This document shows, in pieces, positions 3,388-43,306 of a DNA stretch of 64,000 bases. The notes under the pieces are model-generated. The model was not told where the DNA came from, ran no database searches, and saw only the letters and a program-made list of their open reading frames with translations. Source of the DNA: Escherichia coli (lineage in GTDB: Bacteria > Pseudomonadota > Gammaproteobacteria > Enterobacterales > Enterobacteriaceae); the NCBI RefSeq assembly GCF_013315695.1, contig NZ_CP054353.1; one strand, 5' to 3'. How positions within the stretch are numbered: position 1 is the first letter of the stretch; every line of letters starts with the position of its first letter. Position numbers and translations under genes: made by a program.

Positions 3388-3616
3388 TGTTGACTCCGAG
3401 TGCTGGTTATCTATCCAGTGTAACAGGCGGGGAGCGATTAAAAAAGAGGCGGGTTGATGACAAAGGTTACACCGTCAGACGTGCTACGCCTGTCAGGCCT
3501 ATTCGACTCATGCAATATATTGAATTTGCATAGTTTTGTGGGGCGAATAAGGCGTTCACGCCGCATCCGGCGTGAACAAAGTACTCTTTTTCGCACAAAC
3601 CAATATGTGCAAATTA

Positions 3617-4444
3617 TTACTTCTTCCAGAAATCATCGAAAACGGTAATTGGCGGACGGCGTTTATGTTCAGTTTTCAGATACCAGTTCTCTATTGTTCT
3701 GGCGACCTGTTCAGGTACGTTTTTCCCTTCCAGATAGTCGTCGATATTGTCATAGGTCACGCCGAGTGCCACTTCATCTGGTAGAGAAGGGCGATCATCT
3801 TCCAGATCGGCCGTTGGCGCTTTCTTATAAAGGTGTTCCGGGCAACCTAATGCCGCCAGTAACTGTTTACCCTGACGTTTGTTAAGACGATACAGTGGAT
3901 TAATGTCCGTACCGCCGTCACCATATTTAGTGAAGAATCCGGTAATGGCTTCTGCTGCATGATCGGTGCCCACCACGACACCGCTGGTCATACCCGCAAT
4001 GCTATATTGTGCTTTCATCCGCTCACGCGCTTTTTCATTGCCACGGACAAAATCGCTCAGTTCAATGCCTGCTTCCCGCAATGCCTGCTCGCTGGCCAAT
4101 ACCGCGCCCTTGATATTAACGGTTAATACGCGATCCGGTTGAATAAAGGCAATGGCATCCTGGCAATCTTGTTCGTCAGCCTGAACACCATAGGGCAGGC
4201 GTACGGCAATAAATTGCAGTGATTCGTTGCCAGTTTCCTGGCGCAGCTCATTAATCGCCATCTGGCACAGCTTTCCGGCAAGCGTGGAGTCCTGACCGCC
4301 GCTGATCCCGAGCACCAGTGATTTAATGAACGGATAAGTTTGCAGGTAGCTTTTCAGAAAATCGACACTACGACGAATTTCCTCTTCAGCATTAATCTGC
4401 GGTTTTGCGCCCAGCGCCTTTATTATTTGTTGTTGCAATGTCAT
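3617..4444 (-). CDS. nadE: NH3-dependent NAD+ synthetase
   Basis: 275-aa ORF with the SGGQDS PP-loop motif ([15 protein letters not shown]). Confidence 0.95.
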
Positions 4445-5282: not shown

Positions 5283-5603
5283 ATGGAAAAGAAACACATT
5301 TATCTGTTTTGTTCTGCGGGCATGTCTACCTCTTTACTGGTATCAAAAATGCGCGCACAGGCAGAAAAATATGAAGTTCCGGTCATTATTGAAGCATTTC
5401 CGGAAACACTGGCTGGTGAAAAAGGTCAGAATGCCGATGTCGTGTTATTAGGGCCGCAGATTGCTTATATGTTGCCCGAAATCCAGCGTTTGTTACCCAA
5501 CAAACCGGTCGAAGTAATTGACTCGCTGCTTTATGGCAAAGTCGATGGTTTAGGCGTGCTTAAGGCTGCGGTTGCAGCGATTAAAAAAGCCGCAGCAAAT
5601 TAA
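5283..5603 (+). CDS. chbB: PTS chitobiose-specific EIIB component
   Basis: Translation from ATG 5283 ([20 protein letters not shown]...), 106 aa with the EIIB Cys-containing N-terminus; first gene of the chb operon. Confidence 0.9.
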
Positions 5604-31859: not shown

Positions 31860-31957
31860 CAGCCGAAAGGCACCCGCGCGTAATTTACCGTTTCCTGAGT
31901 AAATTCTCCAAATAAAATTCCACAGTCAAAAGTACAGAAACAAAAACAGGTATGTGA

Positions 31958-32215
31958 TCACATCGCCGGAAGTGGCAGCGACATCTGCGCATCACCACGG
32001 TGTGACGCTGGCAGGCTCTGCCACGGAATATCCGGTGAAGTACCACCGCTGCGCTTTACGGTGAGTTTTTCGAAGCTCTCCAGCGTCGAGAAGGAGAGAC
32101 TGCATTCGGGATTGTTGCACTGGTAGAGCTTCTGCCGGACAGTGCGTGAGTCGTTCGCGGCGCGGCTTGTGCGGGTGCGCGTGCTCGCACCACAAAAAGG
32201 ACACGGAAAAGACAT
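31958..32215 (-). CDS. ogr: Ogr/Delta-type zinc-finger late-gene activator
   Basis: 85-aa ORF with CPFC...C...NPEC zinc-finger spacing, adjacent to gene D as in P2. Confidence 0.75.
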   Translation of the reverse strand: MSFPCPFCGASTRTRTSRAANDSRTVRQKLYQCNNPECSLSFSTLESFEKLTVKRSGGTSPDIPWQSLPASHRGDAQMSLPLPAM

Positions 32216-32267
32216 GACGGAGACCTCCTTTTTTTCATGAAGGTGAATCTCCGTGATTTTATTCCTG

Positions 32268-33383
32268 TTATTCCTGTTGCGCTATCCATTCAGGAATTTT
32301 TAATTCCAGCTCAAGCCGCGTGGTGAAGCCGCTGTCGTCGATGTTGTGCTCCACCTTCGCCAGTACCCAGTCCTCCGCGTCGATGTCACTCTTGAAACCG
32401 GATACCGTGCCGCGCATTTCGGGGTACAGGTCGGGGCGACCGCGTGCCAGCGTGATGGAGAACTCAGCCGCGCCGCGCTGTAGCTGCTGCCATTTTGCCG
32501 CCGCTGCACGGCGTGCGGCCTCCTCGTTTTTGAAGGTTTTACGCATGACGTACACATTGCCGTCTGCGCCCTCCATGTAATCCCCCTCGCGGCTGCTGCT
32601 TTTCTCCTTTTTTGTTTTTTGGGCAGAACCACGTTTTGTCACGCTGACTTTTTTCTTTTTGCCAAAGTCCAGATCCAGCCAGTAAGCGCGCACCCCCGTG
32701 TACGCCTGCCGGTCTGCAATGCGGAAGTGATGGCTGTCACCGCTGCTGCGGGTGATGGCGAATGAGGGCAGCGGCTTTCCGCTGGCGCTCACCCCCTGTC
32801 CGGGCACGATGAAAAGCAGGGCACCGTTTTTGACGGTGGCGATGGCGCCCAGCATGTCCGCCATGCGCGTGAGAAACGAGATGTCACTTTCCTCCGTCTG
32901 GTCGGCGTGGTCGATTTCCACCTCTGCCAGCGAGGCGCTGATTTGTGCCTTCAGTCCGTAGCGGTACGCGATGGCAGAAACAACCTGTCCCACCGTCACG
33001 TCATGCCAGGACACTTCACGCTTCACGTTGAACTCCTGCCGGAAGTCTGCGCTGCTGGCCGTGATGGTGAGCCTATCCGGTGGTCCCTCATGTGTCACCT
33101 CGTCAACGATGAAGGTTCCCTTGTCTGTCAGCGCCTCACCTTTCCAGCCCAGCGCCAGACCCAGCGTCTGTCCGCGCTTCGGGAGTTGCACTCCGCCGTC
33201 GCAGTCGTCAATCGTGAGGGTTAACTGGTCCGCCTCAAATCCCCGGTTGTCGGTCATCGCCAGCGAGATGACCCGTCGGGTCAGCGCCGCGTTTTCCGTG
33301 CCCTTAACCGTGATGGAAAAATCAGGGATCTTCACGCACTCTGACAGACCGTTCAGGTATCCGCTTACGTCCGCAGGGTTCAT
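32268..33383 (-). CDS. Tail protein D (P2 gpD family)
   Basis: Translation from the internal Met (MNPADVSGYLNG...) aligns along its length with my recollection of P2 gpD (LTMTDNRGFEADQL, SGDSHHF, EFSITLARGR motifs). Confidence 0.85.
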   Translation of the reverse strand: MNPADVSGYLNGLSECVKIPDFSITVKGTENAALTRRVISLAMTDNRGFEADQLTLTIDDCDGGVQLPKRGQTLGLALGWKGEALTDKGTFIVDEVTHEGPPDRLTITASSADFRQEFNVKREVSWHDVTVGQVVSAIAYRYGLKAQISASLAEVEIDHADQTEESDISFLTRMADMLGAIATVKNGALLFIVPGQGVSASGKPLPSFAITRSSGDSHHFRIADRQAYTGVRAYWLDLDFGKKKKVSVTKRGSAQKTKKEKSSSREGDYMEGADGNVYVMRKTFKNEEAARRAAAAKWQQLQRGAAEFSITLARGRPDLYPEMRGTVSGFKSDIDAEDWVLAKVEHNIDDSGFTTRLELELKIPEWIAQQE

Positions 33384-33545
33384 CGCAATTTCTCCGTCTG
33401 TGTCTTCGTCCGGCGAAATACTCCCACGCGCACGGAGGCGCTGTAATCCTGCGTATGTTGTCGGAGAACGGTGAGAACAGGCAGCGCGTGAATGCGGGGC
33501 TGTTTTTCGGGAGGATGTCGCCACACAAAACACCAGGAGGTGCTC

Positions 33546-34727
33546 ATGAGTGAAACACGCTTTCACGGTGCACGCGTCAAAGAAAACACCGACCTTGTGA
33601 CCGCGATTAATGACATTGATTCCAGTGTCATCGGTATCGTGGCCACGGCGGACGATGCAGACAGCGACGCGTTCCCGTTAAACAAACCCGTATTGATCAC
33701 CCGCGTGGCGAATGTGCTGGGTAAGGCAGGCACAACAGGCACGCTGTACAAAACGCTCAAGGCGATTTCCGACCAGACCAGCCCGAAGGTTATCGTGGTG
33801 CGTGTGGCTGAAGCCGGAGAGGAAGGTGAGACACAGGATCAGCTTGTCATCGGTGGCTCGCAGGCTGACGGCAGCTACACGGGCATGTATGCCCTGCTGG
33901 TTGCTGAACAGGACGAGAGCATTGGTTACCGCCCGCGCATTCTGGCGGCTCCCGGCCTGGATACCGAAGCAGTCACATCCGCCCTGTGCGTCATTGCGGA
34001 CAAGCTCCGCGCCTTTGTGTACGCCGGATGTAACGGGTGCGACACGATGGCGGAGGCAATCACTTACCGTGCGAAGTTCTCCGCGCGTGAGCTGATGCTG
34101 CTGTGGCCTGACTTCATTGCCTACAACCCGGTGAGCGGAAATAACGAAACATTTCCGGCAGCGGCGTATGCGTGCGGGTTGCGTGCGCGGATTGACAGTG
34201 AACAGGGCTGGCACAAGTCACTGTCCAACGTGGCGCTGAAAAATGTTCTCGGTATGTCGCAGCAGGTGTTCTGGTCGTTGCAGGCCGAAGACAGTGATGC
34301 GAACAACCTGAACAACAAGGAAATCACCACGATTATTCGCCGTAACGGCTTCCGCTTCTGGGGGAACCGTACTGCCGAAACCAGCGACTACATCTTTGAG
34401 GTGTACACGCGCACAGCGCAGATTCTGGCAGATACCATCGCTGAGGCGCAGTTCGAAACCATTGACGAACCGCTGACCCCGGCGAACGTGAAGGACGTGA
34501 TTAGCGCCATCCGCGCAAAACTCAACGCCCTGGTCACCGCCGGGAAACTCATCGGTGCGGAGTGCTGGTATGACGTGCTGGACAACGGCACGACGGATTT
34601 GCGTCAGGGGCGCGTGCGCATCCGCTACAAGTACACGCCAGTGCCGCCGATGGAAGATCTGACGCTGTATCAGACCTTCACGGATGAGTATTTCGACTCC
34701 GCTTTTGCAACGCTGGGAGGTGCGTAA
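33546..34727 (+). CDS. Contractile tail sheath protein (gpFI)
   Basis: From ATG 33546 with AGGAGG RBS; FPLNKPVLIT, GFRFWGNRT and YTPVPPMEDLTL motifs match P2 FI. Confidence 0.9.
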   Translation: MSETRFHGARVKENTDLVTAINDIDSSVIGIVATADDADSDAFPLNKPVLITRVANVLGKAGTTGTLYKTLKAISDQTSPKVIVVRVAEAGEEGETQDQLVIGGSQADGSYTGMYALLVAEQDESIGYRPRILAAPGLDTEAVTSALCVIADKLRAFVYAGCNGCDTMAEAITYRAKFSARELMLLWPDFIAYNPVSGNNETFPAAAYACGLRARIDSEQGWHKSLSNVALKNVLGMSQQVFWSLQAEDSDANNLNNKEITTIIRRNGFRFWGNRTAETSDYIFEVYTRTAQILADTIAEAQFETIDEPLTPANVKDVISAIRAKLNALVTAGKLIGAECWYDVLDNGTTDLRQGRVRIRYKYTPVPPMEDLTLYQTFTDEYFDSAFATLGGA

Positions 34728-35837: not shown

Positions 35838-38800
35838 TATTCGTGTCAGCTTTGGCGCAATTGACCGGCTGACATGCCCGACCGAAAACGCCCGCCGTCA
35901 GGTGGGCGCTCTCACTGAATCCCTTCAGAAGACGCAGAACAACATACAGGCGCTCGACAGACAGTCGAAGGTGTTCGATCGTGCCGCCGGAAATCTCAGT
36001 AAATACCGCGAACAGATTGCCCGCGCGGAGCAGAGGCTCGCCGGGCTGCGAAAGGCAGAGCAGAACGGTAACATCCTCTCCGAAAAGCAGCGCGAAACGC
36101 TGGCGGCACTCTCCGCGCGGCTTGAGCGCCTGAACGAGCTGCGCACGCGCGAGCGCGAAAAACTCCAGGCGGCGGCTGGCGAAATGCGTAAACATGGCAT
36201 TCTGCTTTCCGGCAGCAGCCGCACCATCGAAAGTGCCGTTCGTCGCACGCAGCAGTACAACGAGCAGCTCGAGCGTGAACGGCAGGCTCTGGCTCGCGTG
36301 ACGCAGGCACAGAGCCGCTATGAGGCCGCGAAGGCACAGGCGGAAAAACTGCGCAACACAGGGGCTGTGGCGATGGCGGCGGGTACAGGCGGCCTGTATG
36401 CGGCGCAGCGCATGATGGCTCCGGCGATGGAGTCCGAACAGCACGGTGCGGTCATCGCAGCCGGTTCGGGGGAAGGCGCACAGGATGGCGCACGTTACAC
36501 CCACATCATCCGTAACATACAGGCTGACGGTCTCGCTGATTTTGCCGGTGCTGCGGAGGCCGTGAGTGCGGTACGCAGCACGCTCGGCGCACTGGGCGAC
36601 ACCGGTGACAGGGAGCTTGAGCGCATCAGCCGTCGTGCGCTGGATATGCGGACCGTCTTTGGTGTTGATGTGCCGCAGAGCATTCAGGCCGCTGCCATCA
36701 TGATGAAGAACGGGCTGGCCGCCAGCAGTGACGAGGCTACTAACCTGATGACGGCAGGGATGCAGCGCATGTCCGCTGAAATGCGCGATGAACTGCCGGA
36801 AATTCTGCATGAGTATTCCACCCACTTCCGCAACATGGGCTTCACCGGCAGCGAGACAATGAGTCTGCTGGTTGAGATGGCAAAGCAGGGCAAGTTTGCG
36901 CTGGACAAAACCGGCGATGCCGTGAAGGAGTTCAGTATCCGTGGTTCGGATATGTCGAAATCCAGTGTTTCAGCGTATGAGACACTTGGCCTGAATGCCG
37001 AACGGGTGTCTGCTGCCATTGCTCAGGGGGGCAGTACCGCACGCCAGGCGATGCAGGTGACCGCCCGTGCACTGCTGGCCATCCGTGACCCGGCAGAGCG
37101 GGCGAACACGGCCATTGCGTTATTCGGCACCCCCGTTGAAGACCTTTCCGTTGACCAGATCCCGCAGTTCCTGAGGGCGCTGGCTGATGTTCGTGACAAT
37201 CTGGGCGATGTCACCGGTGTGGCAGACCGCATGGGGCAGACGCTGCGCGGTAATCTCTCCGGCGATATTCAGGCGCTGAGTGGTGCGTTCTCAGGGCTAC
37301 GCACGGACATCTTCGGTACTGTGACCGAGGATTTGCGCGGGCTGGTTCAGACGGTGAGCGCGTGGGTGACCCGGATGCGCGAATGGGTCGGAGAGCATCA
37401 GGCGCTGGTCAGGGTGCTGGTACTGGCGGGCGGGAGTGTTCTGGCGCTGTCTTCTACGTTCGGTGCGCTGTCACTGACGCTCGGGCTGATTGCGGGGCCG
37501 CTGGCAAAACTGCAACTGGGACTGGGGCTGCTGACGGGGGGCGGCGGCATTGGTGGTGCTGTCCGGCTTGTGTCTGCGATGGCGCTGCGCCTGACGGGGC
37601 TGCCTGCGCTGTGGGGGCTGGTCACGGGGGCGGTGTCGGTACTGGGTGGTGCAGTGGGGGCGCTGTTCAGCCCGGTCGGGCTGATTGTTGCCGCCCTGGT
37701 GGGCGGCGCGGTTCTGGTGTGGAAATACTGGGATCAGATCAGTGCGTTTTTTTCCGGCTTTTTTGCCGGAGTGTGGGAGGCGCTGCAACCGCTGCGGGAA
37801 GCCTTTGCGTCGCTGGCTCCGGTGTTCGGGCTGATTGGCGATGGCATCAAAGCCGTGTGGGAATGGTTCACCCGCCTGCTTGAACCTGCAAACGCCTCAA
37901 AAGAGACACTCGACAAATGCACCAGCGCCGGGGAGTCGTTCGGGAAAACGCTGGGGTGGGTCATTCAGAACATTGTGCTGGGGCCGCTGACACTGCTTCT
38001 TGATGGCCTCGGCACAGTGCTGAAGTGGCTGGGTGTTATCCCGGATGGCATCAGGGAAGCGCAGAAGGAGACGCAAAAACTCCAGGAGAGCGCCGCAAAA
38101 CAGGCCACACAAAAAGCGCCGGTTGCGTGGGAGTGGGATCCTGCACAGAAAAAAATGGTGCAGAAAACATGGTCGTGGTCATCAGATGCAGCGGAAAACA
38201 ACGGTGACAATAAACCCGCAATACCTGCCCCTGCGGTTCCCGGAGAGGTGAAGGGAACGTCAGACAATCCGGTCGGCAAACCCGGTAGTAAATCCCCGCT
38301 GGATGAGGCATGGTTCCGGCAGGGGATACAGAAAACCGCCAGCAACACCGGCGGGCTGCTTGAGGAAACCAAAAAACGTACTGGTCCCGGCGATATTGTT
38401 TTCAAAAACCTGCCCGGACCCGAAATCATTCACGGCGAGTGGAAAGCACCGCAGGTTATCCGGACAGTGCAGGCGGTATCGGCGGGCGGAGGACTGGCGG
38501 ATGCGCTGACAACGCTCTGGCAGAAACTCACCGGAAGACAGACTGCTTCACCCGTTCCGGTCGTGAATATTCCTGCGCCAGTGGAGAGAGTGGCACGTCA
38601 GGTATCCACGCTGCCACAGCCGCAGCACAACGAGGCAAATACAGAACTGGTTGCCGGTATTCAGCGCGTGCATGAGGCTGTGAACAGTCCGGGGGGAGAG
38701 ACGGTATCGCCTCCACCTGTGGTGAACGTTCTGATGCCAGCAGTGAATGTTCCTGCGCCAGTGGTGAGTGTGGCGCGTCAGGTATCCACGCTGCCGCAGC

Positions 38801-39288
38801 ACAACGAGGCAAATACAGAACTGGTTGCCGGTATTCAGCGTGTGCATGAGGCGGTGAACAGTCCGGGTGGAGAGACGGTATCGCCTCCACCTGTGGTGAA
38901 CGTTCTGATGCCAGCAGTGAATGTTCCTGCGCCAGTGGTGAGCGTGGCCCGTCAGGTATCCACGCTGCCGCAGCACAACGAGGCAAATACAGAGCTGGCT
39001 GCCGGTATTCAGCGCGTGCGTGAGGCTGTGAACAGTCCGGGTGGAGATGTGGCTTTATCTGTTCCTGTTGCGGAGGTTATCCGTCCACCGCTGCGACCGG
39101 AGTCCGTCAAAAAAGAAACCGCGCCACAAACGCAGGCTGCGGTATTTTCCGGTGAGATACACGTGCATCTGCACAACGTCAACACGCAGAATCCGCGTGA
39201 ACTGGCAAAACTGGTTGGCGAGGCTGTCCGCGAAGAGATGCGCAGACAGGTGCGTACAGGCATGAACAGCTTCCGTGACAGGGACTAA
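35788..39288 (+). CDS. Tail tape measure protein (gpT)
   Basis: 1166-aa ORF with a coiled-coil N-terminal half, Gly-rich TM segments and C-terminal tandem repeats; the track start at 35788 is a GTG and the true start is uncertain. Confidence 0.85.
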   Translation: MSGRRNVAESATVKSLDIRVSFGAIDRLTCPTENARRQVGALTESLQKTQNNIQALDRQSKVFDRAAGNLSKYREQIARAEQRLAGLRKAEQNGNILSEKQRETLAALSARLERLNELRTREREKLQAAAGEMRKHGILLSGSSRTIESAVRRTQQYNEQLERERQALARVTQAQSRYEAAKAQAEKLRNTGAVAMAAGTGGLYAAQRMMAPAMESEQHGAVIAAGSGEGAQDGARYTHIIRNIQADGLADFAGAAEAVSAVRSTLGALGDTGDRELERISRRALDMRTVFGVDVPQSIQAAAIMMKNGLAASSDEATNLMTAGMQRMSAEMRDELPEILHEYSTHFRNMGFTGSETMSLLVEMAKQGKFALDKTGDAVKEFSIRGSDMSKSSVSAYETLGLNAERVSAAIAQGGSTARQAMQVTARALLAIRDPAERANTAIALFGTPVEDLSVDQIPQFLRALADVRDNLGDVTGVADRMGQTLRGNLSGDIQALSGAFSGLRTDIFGTVTEDLRGLVQTVSAWVTRMREWVGEHQALVRVLVLAGGSVLALSSTFGALSLTLGLIAGPLAKLQLGLGLLTGGGGIGGAVRLVSAMALRLTGLPALWGLVTGAVSVLGGAVGALFSPVGLIVAALVGGAVLVWKYWDQISAFFSGFFAGVWEALQPLREAFASLAPVFGLIGDGIKAVWEWFTRLLEPANASKETLDKCTSAGESFGKTLGWVIQNIVLGPLTLLLDGLGTVLKWLGVIPDGIREAQKETQKLQESAAKQATQKAPVAWEWDPAQKKMVQKTWSWSSDAAENNGDNKPAIPAPAVPGEVKGTSDNPVGKPGSKSPLDEAWFRQGIQKTASNTGGLLEETKKRTGPGDIVFKNLPGPEIIHGEWKAPQVIRTVQAVSAGGGLADALTTLWQKLTGRQTASPVPVVNIPAPVERVARQVSTLPQPQHNEANTELVAGIQRVHEAVNSPGGETVSPPPVVNVLMPAVNVPAPVVSVARQVSTLPQHNEANTELVAGIQRVHEAVNSPGGETVSPPPVVNVLMPAVNVPAPVVSVARQVSTLPQHNEANTELAAGIQRVREAVNSPGGDVALSVPVAEVIRPPLRPESVKKETAPQTQAAVFSGEIHVHLHNVNTQNPRELAKLVGEAVREEMRRQVRTGMNSFRDRD
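38555..39052 (+). repeat. Tandem repeats of 180/174 nt inside the tape-measure gene (about 2.8 copies)
   Basis: gtgaat(a/g)ttcctgcgccagtgg... recurs at 38563, 38743 and 38917; encoded peptide PAPVxxVARQVSTLPQ...HNEANTELVAGIQRVHEAVNSPGGETVSPPPVVNVLMPAVNV repeats in frame. Confidence 0.7.
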
Positions 39289-39760
39289 AGGAGACGCAAT
39301 TATGATGATGATTTTTGGCATGTTTGTGTTTGAACTGAAAACGCTGCCGCATCAACAGATTCAACAAAACAAAACGTGGCGGCATGTGAAAAATGAGCGA
39401 ATCAACCGTTCTGCGGCCTGGCAGTATATTGGCGCAGGTGACGACCAGATCACGCTGTCCGGTCTGCTGTACCCGGAAATTACCGGCGGTGAGGTGTCGC
39501 TGACACTGCTGAACACCCAGGCCTACACCGGATGTCCCTGGCCGCTGATTGATGGTACGGGGCAGATTTACGGAATGTACGTGATTACGGGATTACAGAC
39601 CACCCGCTCCGAACTGGATCGCTACGGGAAGGCAAAAAAGATTGAGTTCTCCATCAGCTTTCAGCGGTGTGATGAGGATATGCGGGAGAGGCTTCAGTCT
39701 GCTTCTGCAGGTGATTTACTGAACACGCTTAAAGACAAAATGGCGATAGCGGCATTCTGA
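39275..39760 (+). CDS. Tail protein U (gpU family)
   Basis: 161-aa ORF following T with an MMMIFGMFVFELKT segment; the actual start may be the internal ATG at 39302. Confidence 0.8.
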   Translation: MTGTKGDAIMMMIFGMFVFELKTLPHQQIQQNKTWRHVKNERINRSAAWQYIGAGDDQITLSGLLYPEITGGEVSLTLLNTQAYTGCPWPLIDGTGQIYGMYVITGLQTTRSELDRYGKAKKIEFSISFQRCDEDMRERLQSASAGDLLNTLKDKMAIAAF

Positions 39761-39770
39761 ATAAAAAAAG

Positions 39771-39795
39771 AGGGAGTGTAAAAAGCACTCCCTTA
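39771..39795 (-). terminator. Intrinsic terminator, minus-strand orientation, abutting the U stop codon
   Basis: Reverse complement reads gggagtg-cttttta-cactccc followed by tctttttttat. Confidence 0.45.
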
Positions 39796-40140
39796 TTGCC
39801 TTCATGGAAAAGAAGCAAATGTTGTCAATACATTCTGACTATATATAAATCGCCCGATGAAGGCAATGGTGATGTTCGGGAAATAAAAAAGCCCTCACAA
39901 AGAGGGCGGCATGCATTGTGTGAAGATTTAATTTTTCTGCTTGCAGGGGGATTATATTGAACGGTATTCATTCAATGCAATATTTTTAATTGTCATTATC
40001 ATTAATGAAAATGTTTCTTGTGTTTTTGTTGCTCTGATTACAATCCCGTTTATTACTGTGTCTTTGCGGCAAAAAAAAAGCCCGCACGGGGCGGGCAAAG
40101 AATGTTTGCATGTGTAGAACAGTGCGGGATTATAAATATA

Positions 40141-40560
40141 TTATGCGTTCTGAAAAGTCCCCTTTGATGGAGATTCAGGCCATACCAGCGCATTATAACA
40201 ATCTTTATTCATCACGGAAGTGAACGTCAACTGCTGAAGTTCCCTAATATATTCAATCCACGTAGCCAACCTTCCCTTGTCTGCATTGCTGATGGTGCCG
40301 GGCAATAACTCAGATTGCCAGATTCTGATCCTCTCTTTTGCCTCCGGCAGCAGGGGATTTCGTTGTCATTCTGCTTTAGCCTGCCACTTTTCAGGTGGCA
40401 GCACATGACGAACAATATTTTCATCATCAAATATCCAGTTACCTGAGTCATCAGCACGTTGGTTAGCGTTAATATCAGAAGTATTAACAACACTAAAACC
40501 GACATGATTAAGTGTTGATGCCTCTCTGGTAATGGTGACAATAATATTATTTCGTTGTAA
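40141..40560 (-). pseudogene. Degenerate ORF of unknown family with an in-frame TGA and no start codon
   Basis: Minus-strand frame reads ...NWIFDDENIVRHVLPPEKWQAKAE*QRNPLLPEAKERIRIWQSELLPGTISNADKGRLATWIEYIRELQQLTFTSVMNKDCYNALVWPESPSKGTFQNA*, protein-like on both sides of the internal stop. Confidence 0.4.
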
Positions 40561-40770
40561 ATCATTTTGATTTTATCTGGTCGAAAGGTCCCTGCTTCGT
40601 TATGTCAGTTTTATCGCCTTCAGAGGAAACCAGATTACTTTGTGCTTCTTTTTCTAACACATACAGTCCCGGAGTTAATATTGCCTGTTTTATGTTCTTG
40701 AGTGCATCATATTAATCTCTTACATATTGTATCTGGTGAAATTTATAATTTTCTGAAGCTGCCTGAAAGA

Positions 40771-40870
40771 ATTGAGTTTCCTGCAGGCTTTCAATGGTGT
40801 GATGAGGATATGTGGGAGAAACTCCAGTCTGCTCCTGCAGGGGGGGCTTACTGAACACTATCAAAGACAA
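40771..40870 (+). repeat. Diverged direct copy of the 3' end of gene U
   Basis: attgagtttcctgcaggctttcaatggtgtgatgaggatatgtgggagaaactccagtctgctcctgcag...ctgaacac...aaagacaa parallels U 39641-39740 at about 80 percent identity. Confidence 0.6.
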
Positions 40871-40903
40871 ATCTTCGTCGTTGATCGCATTCCCTTAACC
40901 TGA

Positions 40904-40938
40904 CGCCACCACCCCACACAGATGACGGGGTGGTGGCG
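40904..40938. terminator. Perfect 12-bp inverted repeat hairpin between convergent tail operons
   Basis: cgccaccacccc ... ggggtggtggcg, located between the rightward FI-U unit and the leftward H unit. Confidence 0.5.
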
Positions 40939-40943
40939 TGATT

Positions 40944-41240
40944 TCACCAGTAACTAACCAGCAGCCAGAACAACAGGCATATTGCCACTGGTGCAGCAAA
41001 ATCCATCAGGCTTCCGGCATCCCACACGCGCGGATCAAAACCACCCCACCAGGGCATGTTAATTCGTTTCCCTTTCCCGAATTTTTCAATCCAGCGATAT
41101 TCTGCCTGGGTGTGTTCACGCGCAATGAAGAACGAGCAACCGGCTATCGCTCCGTAAACCCAGTTTCCCGTAAGAATGCCAGCCAGTACCTGCGCAGCCA
41201 CGGCACAAAGTGCATGAAGGACAGGCGTTATATCCATCAC
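40944..41240 (-). CDS. Hypothetical small membrane protein downstream of the tail fibre gene
   Basis: 98-aa ORF with hydrophobic N- and C-terminal segments (MMDITPVLHALCAVAAQVLAGILTG...AICLLFWLLVSYW); no family recognised. Confidence 0.5.
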   Translation of the reverse strand: MMDITPVLHALCAVAAQVLAGILTGNWVYGAIAGCSFFIAREHTQAEYRWIEKFGKGKRINMPWWGGFDPRVWDAGSLMDFAAPVAICLLFWLLVSYW

Positions 41241-41249
41241 TCCCTCCCT

Positions 41250-41528
41250 TCAGCTCCATTCCCGAAGCGGTGCTTCCAGCTCCACCACATAATCAGAGAA
41301 CACAGAAACATCAAACGTATCATCAAGAATACGAATGTTGACAAAATAACCGTCATTCCGGATACAGACAGGTTCTCCCTCTTCATTTTCCCCTGTTTCT
41401 GTATAGGTGAAACCAATTTCATCGACTAACAGTTTGTTCTGGAGGTCTTCATTTTCCTCCCAGCCAAGAGATGACAGGAGGGCTTTAAACTGCTGTTTGT
41501 CATGAAACTTCAAAGTCAAATCTTTCAT
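41250..41528 (-). CDS. Hypothetical acidic protein downstream of the tail fibre gene
   Basis: 92-aa ORF overlapping the H stop by 4 nt; strongly acidic; no family recognised; it occupies the position of a tail fibre assembly protein. Confidence 0.5.
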   Translation of the reverse strand: MKDLTLKFHDKQQFKALLSSLGWEENEDLQNKLLVDEIGFTYTETGENEEGEPVCIRNDGYFVNIRILDDTFDVSVFSDYVVELEAPLREWS

Positions 41529-43306
41529 ATTGCCTCTCTTAATTGCCTGTCATTTAATTCTTTATGCCATATGCGGAAATTACGAATGTGACCAAACAGA
41601 TGTCGTTCTCCAGTACTCGTTCGCCCTCCAATACGGATAATTGCGGAGTTCTGAATATATGACCATGTGGTTTTTGTTTCGCCGGATAACCGTCCGTTAC
41701 TGACTGAGCATGTAGACTGATCTGACTTTACTCGCATCCCTATAACCATTTTTTCAAGTGATGCGTTTTCGTTTACCCGCATGTTAGCCCCGCCTATATC
41801 GCAATAAGGAAATCCGTCGTAATCCGTCGAACGACCGAATCCAAGAATAATTTCCTCTCCAGTTTGATGACCACTGGTATTAAGAACACGCGGTGCTGCA
41901 TTTGGCGTTTTATACCAGTTCTTATGTACCTCACAAAGAACAGTAAAAGGAGGATTATAAAGATTATTCTTAACCGGAACTGTCACAATATCACTTGCAC
42001 GTGTTGCTGGTGTTGCACCCGATATAATAAATGATGATGCGCAGGGGCCATTTTCAACCTGAGGGGTGGACAGGAAAACATAATCTCCTGATTCAACGAC
42101 ACCACCTTCTTTCGGAGTGTATTGTATTGCCGATGTTATGTAGGACTCATCAATTGCCTGAATCGTTGCCTCTGCAAAAATCCAGCCGGTAACCTCATCT
42201 TTGTTAACTCGGGCAGTGATCCTGTCGGCAGCTCCTCCTGTGATTTTAACTGATAAAGATCGCGTATTAACAATGGCATATCCAAGGTTAGATGATGTGT
42301 TGCCATCGTAAGATTCAAACCTGATCCTTAACATGAGTTCCAGATCAGTTTTAAATCTGCACGATGTCGTCACGCACTTATTATCGCCTGAAACATCGAC
42401 GGCTCCGGTTACTGCAACTGATGCCATGTTAACAGGCAGGGACTGCCCAATCAGAGAATCGTTACAGACGAACTTTCCATAGGTAAAACCAGAACTGTCC
42501 GTCCCGGTTTCGGGAACATCCATATTTACCGACTTGCCCCAGTTGACCGGGGTTTCCGAATTGAGCATGTAGTTTGTTCTTTGCCCTTCAATAAGCAGTC
42601 CATCGCGTTCAAATCGCGGCTCATTAATTTCAGCTATTTTCAGTTCACCGGATTTATTGATATAGGTTGCCGTTGATGCGCGACTGAAACTAACCTGTTT
42701 ATCACTGGCAACCTGAACCACATCGTCACCAATGGTGATTTTTTTATAGCCCGGTGCGAACCCCGTAAGCATATCCAGTGAATCGTTAAACGGTATCCAC
42801 ACATCAGGCAGCGGCGGTACAGACTCCTTTTCCTGCGCAACATATTCTTCAACATAGGCGCGGGTGGCGAGCACGACAGAGGGATCAACTTTCAGTTCGA
42901 CAGACGAAGCACTGGAAACCACAACAATCATGCGAATCGTCTGCGTGCGCCCGCTTCCCTCGGTGAGTACAGGCTTGTAGGTTTCGGGGCAGTTCGCCAC
43001 GGCAATCATCACGCCGTCGCTGTCAAAAAGCCCAATCTCGCGGATCCAGAACCCCCCTTTATCTTCCGGGATAATCATCTCGGCGATAAGCTGGCTGGCA
43101 TCAGACGCGCTGATGCTCAGTTGATTCAATGGGGCGCTGTATACCGTGTTCACCAGATTTTCCATGGAAGCCTCCGGTTCCGGCAGGCTGCCGCCGCCAT
43201 CCCCCAGTTTCATGGTGGTGATGGATATTTTCGAGCCGCTGGCCACCGCCTTTGCCAGACGGGCGGCACCCTTGTCAGTCAGAACAGAAAAATATTTTAC
43301 AGTCAT
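41525..43306 (-). CDS. Tail fibre protein (gpH family) with divergent lower-GC C-terminal module
   Basis: N-terminus matches P2 H (ITTMKLGDGGG, GFWIREIGLFD, AVANCPETYKPVLTEGSG, RMIVVVSSASSVEL); the C-terminal two thirds are unrelated to P2 H. Confidence 0.8.
   Translation of the reverse strand: MTVKYFSVLTDKGAARLAKAVASGSKISITTMKLGDGGGSLPEPEASMENLVNTVYSAPLNQLSISASDASQLIAEMIIPEDKGGFWIREIGLFDSDGVMIAVANCPETYKPVLTEGSGRTQTIRMIVVVSSASSVELKVDPSVVLATRAYVEEYVAQEKESVPPLPDVWIPFNDSLDMLTGFAPGYKKITIGDDVVQVASDKQVSFSRASTATYINKSGELKIAEINEPRFERDGLLIEGQRTNYMLNSETPVNWGKSVNMDVPETGTDSSGFTYGKFVCNDSLIGQSLPVNMASVAVTGAVDVSGDNKCVTTSCRFKTDLELMLRIRFESYDGNTSSNLGYAIVNTRSLSVKITGGAADRITARVNKDEVTGWIFAEATIQAIDESYITSAIQYTPKEGGVVESGDYVFLSTPQVENGPCASSFIISGATPATRASDIVTVPVKNNLYNPPFTVLCEVHKNWYKTPNAAPRVLNTSGHQTGEEIILGFGRSTDYDGFPYCDIGGANMRVNENASLEKMVIGMRVKSDQSTCSVSNGRLSGETKTTWSYIQNSAIIRIGGRTSTGERHLFGHIRNFRIWHKELNDRQLREAI

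Follow-up and report, generated by a model that had tools for sequence, protein, structure and literature searches.

The locus lies in a prophage of Escherichia coli, inside a window of 64,000 nucleotides (the whole stretch of DNA that we analysed; NCBI RefSeq assembly GCF_013315695.1, contig NZ_CP054353.1). The pheS gene of the window matches E. coli strains at 99.9% identity. The prophage starts at about 31.3 kb in the window, past ihfA, and its gene content assigns it to the P2 family. Its plus-strand tail operon reads FI-FII-E-T-U, with U last, and meets a minus-strand tail-fibre operon at a convergent junction. Both are late tail operons, and the 380-bp gap considered here separates them. 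The genes of this part of the prophage are as follows.

32268 to 33566, minus strand: D, a P2-family gene
39275 to 39760, plus strand: tail gene U (GpU; Pfam PF06995, E=9e-40; phrog_76)
40141 to 40551, minus strand: tfa pseudogene, N-terminally truncated, with an in-frame stop and a weak phrog_136 match
40944 to 41246, minus strand: 100-aa ORF, phrog_1443, no Pfam family, hydrophobic stretches
41250 to 41528, minus strand: 92-aa ORF, phrog_1361
41525 to 43306, minus strand: tail fibre gene H, followed by I, J, W and V and then the capsid genes, all on the minus strand

By U protein, the closest sequenced phages are P88 and other members of Xuanwuvirus (78% identical), and from its sequence we class the phage that hosts the gap as P88-like (Xuanwuvirus, Peduoviridae, P2 family) and not lambdoid. 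The order FI-FII-E-T-U on one strand, converging on the tail-fibre genes, is shared with these phages; the FI-U block is inverted relative to P2, which is the normal layout of P88-like phages. The difference lies at the junction itself, where P88 has a DNA invertase and an invertible fibre segment, whereas this clade has the 380-bp gap with its three terminators. Relatives in Citrobacter have a DNA invertase with an invertible fibre segment, or else one bidirectional hairpin. In the nearest relatives that do not belong to the clade (L017, positions 3525-4124, Citrobacter youngae; L164, phage P88) a convergent gene of 185-196 aa follows U within about 40 bp at most; it is annotated as a DNA invertase in P88, and we assumed the C. 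youngae ORF to be the same. The three-terminator gap fills this slot in the present lineage.

Some features lie further from the junction. D on the minus strand and FI on the plus strand diverge at 33492-33566, where their mechanical ORFs overlap. The prophage end at 31300-32220 comes directly after the ihfA terminator and, judged by eye, contains several strong hairpins at 31406-31580; a small Cys-rich minus-strand ORF at about 31950-32215 is presumably Ogr-like, again by eye. The tape-measure gene holds a 174-nt unit three times in tandem at 38563-39140 on the plus strand (100%, 97% and 62% identity to the reference copy), and the tape-measure genes of relatives are 2805-3828 nt long, so that repeat number may vary here.

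The segments between the terminators of the gap are AT-rich, as had been noticed from the sequence alone, with a GC content of 0.27-0.41 against 0.54-0.62 in the adjacent tail genes. We found the gap in 71 of 5426 complete E. coli genomes (about 1.3%, ST131 isolates included) at 85-92% identity. It is 377-380 bp long in all 71, has no annotated feature in any of them, and none of the 71 is a model strain. Six IMG/VR contigs and five metagenome contigs carry it as well. Searches with blastn against 50,697 phage records and against a plasmid collection returned no match, and the sequence is absent from U-protein relatives in other genera (Citrobacter, Enterobacter, Pantoea and others). In those relatives and in 75 further viral contigs (U 78-89% identical), U is followed by one hairpin, often bidirectional, or by an invertase gene, and the three-terminator arrangement occurs in none of them. 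By these comparisons of sequence the gap is a lineage-specific insert confined to one clade of P88-like phages, and the sequence-only reading was fair in calling it cargo placed after U. Because relatives use one bidirectional hairpin or an invertase gene, the extra DNA was acquired and is not needed for termination alone. Exact 19- and 20-mer matches in L016 and L040 stand in unrelated contexts and are due to chance.

A tool scan recovered three intrinsic terminators within 326 nt of the gap, all canonical and all on the minus strand.

39793 to 39771, minus strand: stem of T1, with its U-run at 39770 to 39762; 8 bp, 7-nt loop, tail CTTTTTTTAT, -12.1 kcal/mol
39907 to 39891, minus strand: stem of T2, with its U-run at 39890 to 39885; 6 bp, tail TTTTTTATTT, -10.9 kcal/mol
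40071 to 40096, minus strand: T3, with its stem at 40096 to 40080 and a run of 9 U; 6 G-C pairs, tail TTTTTTTTTG, -10.9 kcal/mol

The coordinates match the places given in the sequence-only reading. A stricter scan of 39751-40150, which asked for a perfect stem and at least 6 T in 8, returned T1, T2 and T3 only, and neither scan found a plus-strand terminator in this range. The mean number of strict sites in 1000 dinucleotide shuffles was 0.019, with more than one site in none of the shuffles, and over both strands of the 64-kb window there are only 19 sites of this kind. Each of the three minus-strand sites joins a G+C-rich stem-loop (6-8 perfect pairs) to a U-run (6-9 T). Seen from the plus strand, these T-runs are A-runs that precede the hairpins, with no U-runs after them. 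As no canonical plus-strand terminator follows U, its transcripts must enter the gap; T1 could be a weak terminator for U on that strand.

It had also been proposed that conserved structure across homologous loci would be informative, and structure is indeed conserved. All three hairpins are kept, with changes confined to loops or compensatory, save for one T3 pair. T1 has undergone one compensatory change of G:C to C:G (strain 135) and one loop change, T2 varies among clades by a loop substitution only, and T3 has lost one basal pair in one clade. A 20-mer from the T3 hairpin was uninformative as a marker of the locus, as more than 120 unrelated viral contigs hold this generic terminator.

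Part of what these hairpins do is ordinary. The tfa gene is intact in strain 135 and ends 44 nt upstream of T3, which makes T3 the native terminator of the tail-fibre assembly gene and of the fibre operon. The stop codon of U adjoins the T-run of T1. T3 and T1 are thus placed to end the convergent tail operons, an ordinary job; with T3 at the end of the tail-fibre operon and T1 at the point where U stops, the three terminators together necessarily stop late minus-strand transcription before it runs antisense into the U operon. A role in termination and insulation follows directly from the sequence. It is possible that there is no further role, that the hairpins only terminate and insulate the convergent late operons, and that the AT-rich DNA between them is a non-functional relic in which promoter-like motifs arise by chance. 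Such a relic might consist of morons emptied by deletion of their genes, or of what remained from a replaced invertase or fibre module. We take this to be a substantial possibility, while putting it clearly short of even odds. The assignment of T3 to tfa and the contact of T1 with the U stop codon both fit it well. Two observations made above do not: relatives need a single hairpin and about 40 bp to terminate at this junction, and relic DNA should vary in length, whereas the gap measures 377-380 bp in every copy.

Repeated replacement of modules at the locus, as recorded in the tfa pseudogene and in a second remnant of the U 3' end, also agrees with a gap of relic DNA. The pseudogene is 63% identical to the tfa protein of strain 135 over residues 54-187, with the stop in the aligned frame (tblastn), and mechanical ORFs at 40227-40565 and 40141-40305 are pieces of it. 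Beyond it, an orphan second copy of the U 3' end lies at 40766-40898 on the plus strand (79-88% identical to 39636-39739), followed at 40903-40937 by an 11-bp GC-rich hairpin that has no T-run. Together, the orphan end and this hairpin look like the scar of a fibre-module replacement, by recombination with a related phage of equal convergent layout. The 100-aa ORF, the 92-aa ORF and H form the live end of the present fibre module; a plus-strand ORF at 40938-41429, which overlaps the small genes after H, is probably spurious. The pseudogene, the second U 3' end and the live module imply a nested replacement of fibre modules, throughout which the T1-T3 gap remained joined to the U side.

We next consider whether the gap encodes a peptide. 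The sequence-only reading, which had reported only very short ORFs, holds within each segment, where we find a 14-aa ORF with an ATG start (39804-39848) and a 9-aa ORF (39857-39886); it does not hold for the gap as a whole, where mechanical ORFs of 41-58 codons run across the terminators, none of them gene-like. No ORF of at least 9 codons in the gap has both a conserved start and a ribosome-binding site, and no conserved ORF was found there, as befits a small RNA (sRNA) gene. The same reading had offered, beside an sRNA, a micro-protein or a type I toxin-antitoxin locus. Here the product of the 9- or 14-codon ORF, or a hydrophobic plus-strand peptide of segment 2 (the stretch between T2 and T3), would be opposed by a minus-strand RNA. 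The sRNA half of that reading is plausible in the light of the promoter-like sites, the unstructured 5' parts and the lack of coding potential described here; the peptide half is unsupported, and we judge it very improbable. The gap does resemble type I loci (hok/sok, ldr/rdl, ibs/sib, zor/orz) in being a short AT-rich intergenic locus with closely spaced terminators, and in combining an open, hydrophobic frame with a putative small RNA from the opposite strand. The hydrophobic frame (39941-40117; core IFLIVIIINENVSCVFVALITIPFITVSL, 39977-40069) is open for 46-79 codons in 15 of 15 variants, with an ATG available in one clade. All 14 of 14 variants keep the 9-aa ORF intact, and by eye a plus-strand promoter-like sequence, TTGTCA-16-TATAAA, can be read at 39822-39849, a site absent from the list of the tool scan.

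The details of these frames point the other way. Half of the variants (7 of 14) have a frameshift in the 14-aa ORF. The 9-aa ORF has no Shine-Dalgarno sequence or other ribosome-binding site, and nearly all of its substitutions alter the product (five residue substitutions, four of them changing the internal peptide and one turning the ATG start into GTG). For the hydrophobic frame, pN/pS is 0.4-0.7 against 0.24-0.8 in two off-frames, a match that indicates no frame-specific constraint, and since the strand is T-rich, other frames are equally hydrophobic. Two clades start the hydrophobic frame with TTG and one with ATG, and one has lost the start; in one clade its first 13 codons fall in another frame across a conserved -10 island; its C-terminus shifts with the length of an A-run; and it, too, lacks a Shine-Dalgarno sequence. 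The gap differs from known type I loci in these respects, and also in having no plus-strand terminator for the would-be toxin mRNA. The candidate minus-strand unit 2, described below, would sit just upstream of the hydrophobic frame, with no credible toxin gene to oppose.

Promoter prediction and RNA folding had been suggested as checks. A promoter-like site of sigma-70 type precedes each terminator on the same strand, its -10 ending 32-44 nt from the stem, and the predicted fold of every unit is a free 5' part followed by the terminator hairpin. For the segments, a reading as promoter-to-terminator cassettes is better than one as elements with a terminator on either side. The candidate units are these.

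39838 to 39866, minus strand (read 39866 to 39838): promoter-like site of unit 1, TTGCCT-17-TATAGT, the -35 being TTGCCA in some clades
39796 to 39834, minus strand: RNA body of unit 1, predicted single-stranded; putative transcription start at about 39834-39831, whole RNA about 65-72 nt
39948 to 39980, minus strand (read 39980 to 39951): promoter-like site of unit 2, TTGCAT-18-TATAAT, with the invariant island AATATAATCCC
39908 to 39944, minus strand: predicted RNA body of unit 2; putative transcription start at about 39944 (39942-39944), whole RNA about 60 nt
39981 to 40070, minus strand: upstream part of segment 2, with the invariant islands AAACATTTTCA (40016 to 40006) and ATTGTAATCA (40044 to 40035)
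40097 to 40156, minus strand: unit 3, a promoter-like TTTTCA-16-TATAAT (40156 to 40129) and a body of about 25 nt

From the -10 to the stem the distance is 44 nt in unit 1, 43 nt in unit 2 and 32 nt in unit 3, whose RNAs would have their 3' ends at T1, T2 and T3, respectively. An AT-rich stretch lies upstream of the unit 2 promoter-like site. The unit 2 body consists of a hypervariable 5' 15 nt and then the block TTAAATCTTCACACAATGCATG, invariant in 15 of 15 variants. The promoter-like site of unit 3 overlaps the end of the tfa remnant, that is, former coding sequence, and the product of unit 3 could be an RNA of 3'-UTR type, about 52 nt long, with its end at T3. The 9-mer TATAATCCC occurs only twice in the 64 kb (0.21 expected), at 39948-39956 and at 40126-40134 on the minus strand; it is both times the predicted -10 with its C-rich discriminator, in units 2 and 3, and it is invariant. 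A tandem duplication of the units was rejected, as the only sequence shared is a terminator 3' half with its T-run, in units 2 and 3.

How far these promoter-like sites exceed chance depends on how they are counted. Hexamers of this kind are common in AT-rich DNA, and in the tool scan the region has no more promoter-like sites than its shuffles, which is as expected if the motifs are accidents in relic DNA. Their placement was scored as well: by the tool's criteria two of the three terminators have an upstream same-strand site (P=0.036 relative to shuffles of the local sequence), and by relaxed criteria all three do (P=0.0005, a figure to be discounted as the criteria were chosen post hoc). 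A site at the right distance and on the right strand before all three terminators argues against a set of hairpins that merely insulate.

The upstream part of segment 2 possibly contains regulatory sites for unit 2. The palindrome TCATTAATGA (39999-40008) is the 10-bp core of a 20-bp near-perfect palindrome, CATTATCATTAATGAAAATG (39994-40013), centred about 57-60 nt upstream of the predicted start of unit 2, and the 20-bp palindrome may be a binding site for a protein dimer. In other clades the symmetry of the core is kept by paired central changes (TCATTAATGA against TCATCGATGA). Upstream of unit 2, AATGATAAT may be Fur-box-like, a pyrimidine run in unit 1 may be RybB-like, and an 8-mer in unit 3 may be complementary to GcvB; these possible resemblances carry no weight in our reading.

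The palindrome brings in a further alternative, that the gap acts on the plus strand or as DNA: either as the structured 3' UTR of the FI-U mRNA, its hairpins serving as exonuclease barriers, or as protein-binding sites, for which the palindrome and the invariant islands are candidates; either might control late tail expression. The entry of U transcripts into the gap would suit such a function, as would the folding of the plus strand, which is as good as that of the minus strand (z from -2.4 to -4.4), and the preserved symmetry of TCATTAATGA. Short palindromes are, however, frequent in AT-rich DNA, and all T-runs belong to the minus strand only. We also searched for an Ogr-dependent late promoter, as a TGT-N12-ACA dyad about 55 nt upstream of a start site; the gap contains no such motif, and the window has 9 matches against 16 expected. 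This alternative also leaves the minus-strand U-tail and the upstream -10 of each hairpin unexplained, and we regard it as improbable.

We compared 15 distinct gap sequences in four clades, a sample with only four distinct variants per unit. Nucleotide diversity was as follows.

U third codon positions: 0.10-0.11
T1, T2 and T3: 0.038, 0.026 and 0.017
Segment 1, between T1 and T2: 0.053
Predicted RNA body of unit 1 (39796 to 39834): 0.042
Unit 2, -10 block: 0
Unit 2, the 22 nt that precede T2: 0.018
Unit 2, spacer of the promoter-like site: 0.27
Unit 2, 15 nt at the start of the predicted RNA: 0.36 (0.356)

Segment 1 evolves about half as fast as third codon positions of U (0.053 vs 0.10-0.11). 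Within unit 1 all 15 variants agree in the -10, in spacer length and in the 20 nt at the 5' end of the predicted RNA; they differ upstream of the -35, inside the spacer and over the body's 3' half. A low-diversity stretch that begins at about 39344, inside U, takes in segment 1, T2 and the 22-nt block of unit 2. As this is one stretch shared with U, the invariance of these parts is not independent evidence, and it could merely reflect a low-diversity recombination block. That most of what is conserved in the gap falls within such a block is another point for regarding the gap as a relic held between terminators.

The -10 island of unit 2, AATATAATCCC, is invariant within DNA of diversity 0.27-0.36, in which 12 of the 18 spacer positions vary, and the TTG of the -35 is kept 17-18 nt from the -10 in four clades despite an indel. 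Three invariant islands of 10-11 nt in segment 2 exceed column permutation (P=0.0005). An unchanging -10 amid diversity of 27-36%, with the -35 spacing conserved across an indel, counts against non-functional DNA. Covariation is minimal (the one compensatory pair of T1, and a second pair in a weak upstream hairpin, itself broken elsewhere).

Known RNA families gave no lead. The Rfam search, also among the checks proposed from the sequence alone, returned nothing above noise: covariance models run at permissive E-values gave only terminator-driven noise, the best relevant scores being 12-22 bits against thresholds of 41-80 (AgvB, IsrK and RyhB, 12-16 bits against 50-56), and no antitoxin family (Sok, Sib and others) matched in the gap. 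The missing Rfam match is also in keeping with hairpins that do nothing but terminate. Target complementarity for the candidate RNAs within the 64-kb window was at chance level, and the 11-mer ATGGAAAAGAA at 5283 was discarded as a target, as it is at the start of neither listed ORF.

Precedent for the kind of RNA proposed here nevertheless exists. Small RNAs that lie among structural genes of E. coli prophages and end in intrinsic terminators are documented, for example PasB, which is found in RefSeq lambdoid phages; Pas, AgvB, AsxR, Esr41 and STnc100 originate from lambdoid or Stx-type phages or from pathogenicity islands (bioRxiv 10.64898/2026.05.13.724894). The candidate units resemble prophage sRNAs (PasA-D, AgvB/AsxR, IsrK, DicF, IpeX, STnc100, Esr41) in their predicted length of 50-90 nt, their 3' stem-loop and poly-U, a conserved single-stranded region, here predicted, and their presence in only some strains; like PasB, they are located among phage structural genes. 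They differ in showing no similarity to such RNAs by sequence or by covariance model (AgvB, IsrK and RyhB). The Pas sRNAs (PasA-D) themselves are set apart by phage and context, the present host being P88-like Peduoviridae, and by the want of a blastn match to the gap among phage records.

Another precedent comes from phage morons, which are autonomous promoter-gene-terminator cassettes between the structural genes of lambdoid and P2-like phages; in P2 an example is the Z/fun slot between G and FI. The gap is like a moron in being lineage-specific and absent from close relatives, in lying between tail operons, co-oriented with and downstream of a late-operon terminator, in its deviant composition (GC 0.27-0.41 against about 0.57) and in having intrinsic terminators and promoter-like sites of its own, the latter being sequence matches. 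It is unlike one in that it carries no protein-coding gene, its cassettes are only about 100 bp each, and three unrelated ones are stacked.

We therefore return to our preferred reading, that the gap consists of protein-free promoter-to-terminator cassettes giving RNAs of about 50-70 nt, to which we assign, tentatively, a probability of roughly 45%. Under this reading the gap would be a lineage-specific non-coding insert of three unrelated minus-strand cassettes, whose AT-rich segments would be transcribed from their own sigma-70-type promoters, placed 32-44 nt before the next terminator. The products would be an RNA of about 68 nt from unit 1, one of about 60 nt from unit 2 and possibly one of 52 nt from the 3' end of tfa, each made up of an unstructured, conserved 5' part and then a terminator hairpin with its U-tail. 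Such an architecture would be that of base-pairing, Hfq-type sRNAs carried as protein-free morons; here we infer transcription, Hfq dependence and targets alike. It is tempting to speculate further that the junction of the tail operons in these P88-like phages holds two or three protein-free morons in a compact array, unrelated to one another and each with its own promoter, and that each produces an sRNA of about 50-70 nt in the lysogen, with targets among host mRNAs (for example those of envelope or receptor proteins) or in perfect antisense to read-through transcripts of the convergent tail operon. We consider this more specific proposal unlikely.

If the cassettes are not expressed, the gap would be an unusually redundant stack of terminators at a recombination-scarred junction, and ordinary as such. 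If the RNAs are real, they would be prophage sRNAs of a known kind that introduce no new principle. Expressed cassettes would nonetheless be sRNA genes outside every Rfam family and outside the Pas family, in a prophage of the Peduoviridae (P2 family), and would extend the moron mechanism to cargo made of RNA only, delivered in units of about 100 bp. Should the array be as speculated, non-lambdoid prophages of the Peduoviridae would also rewire host regulation through sRNA cargo.
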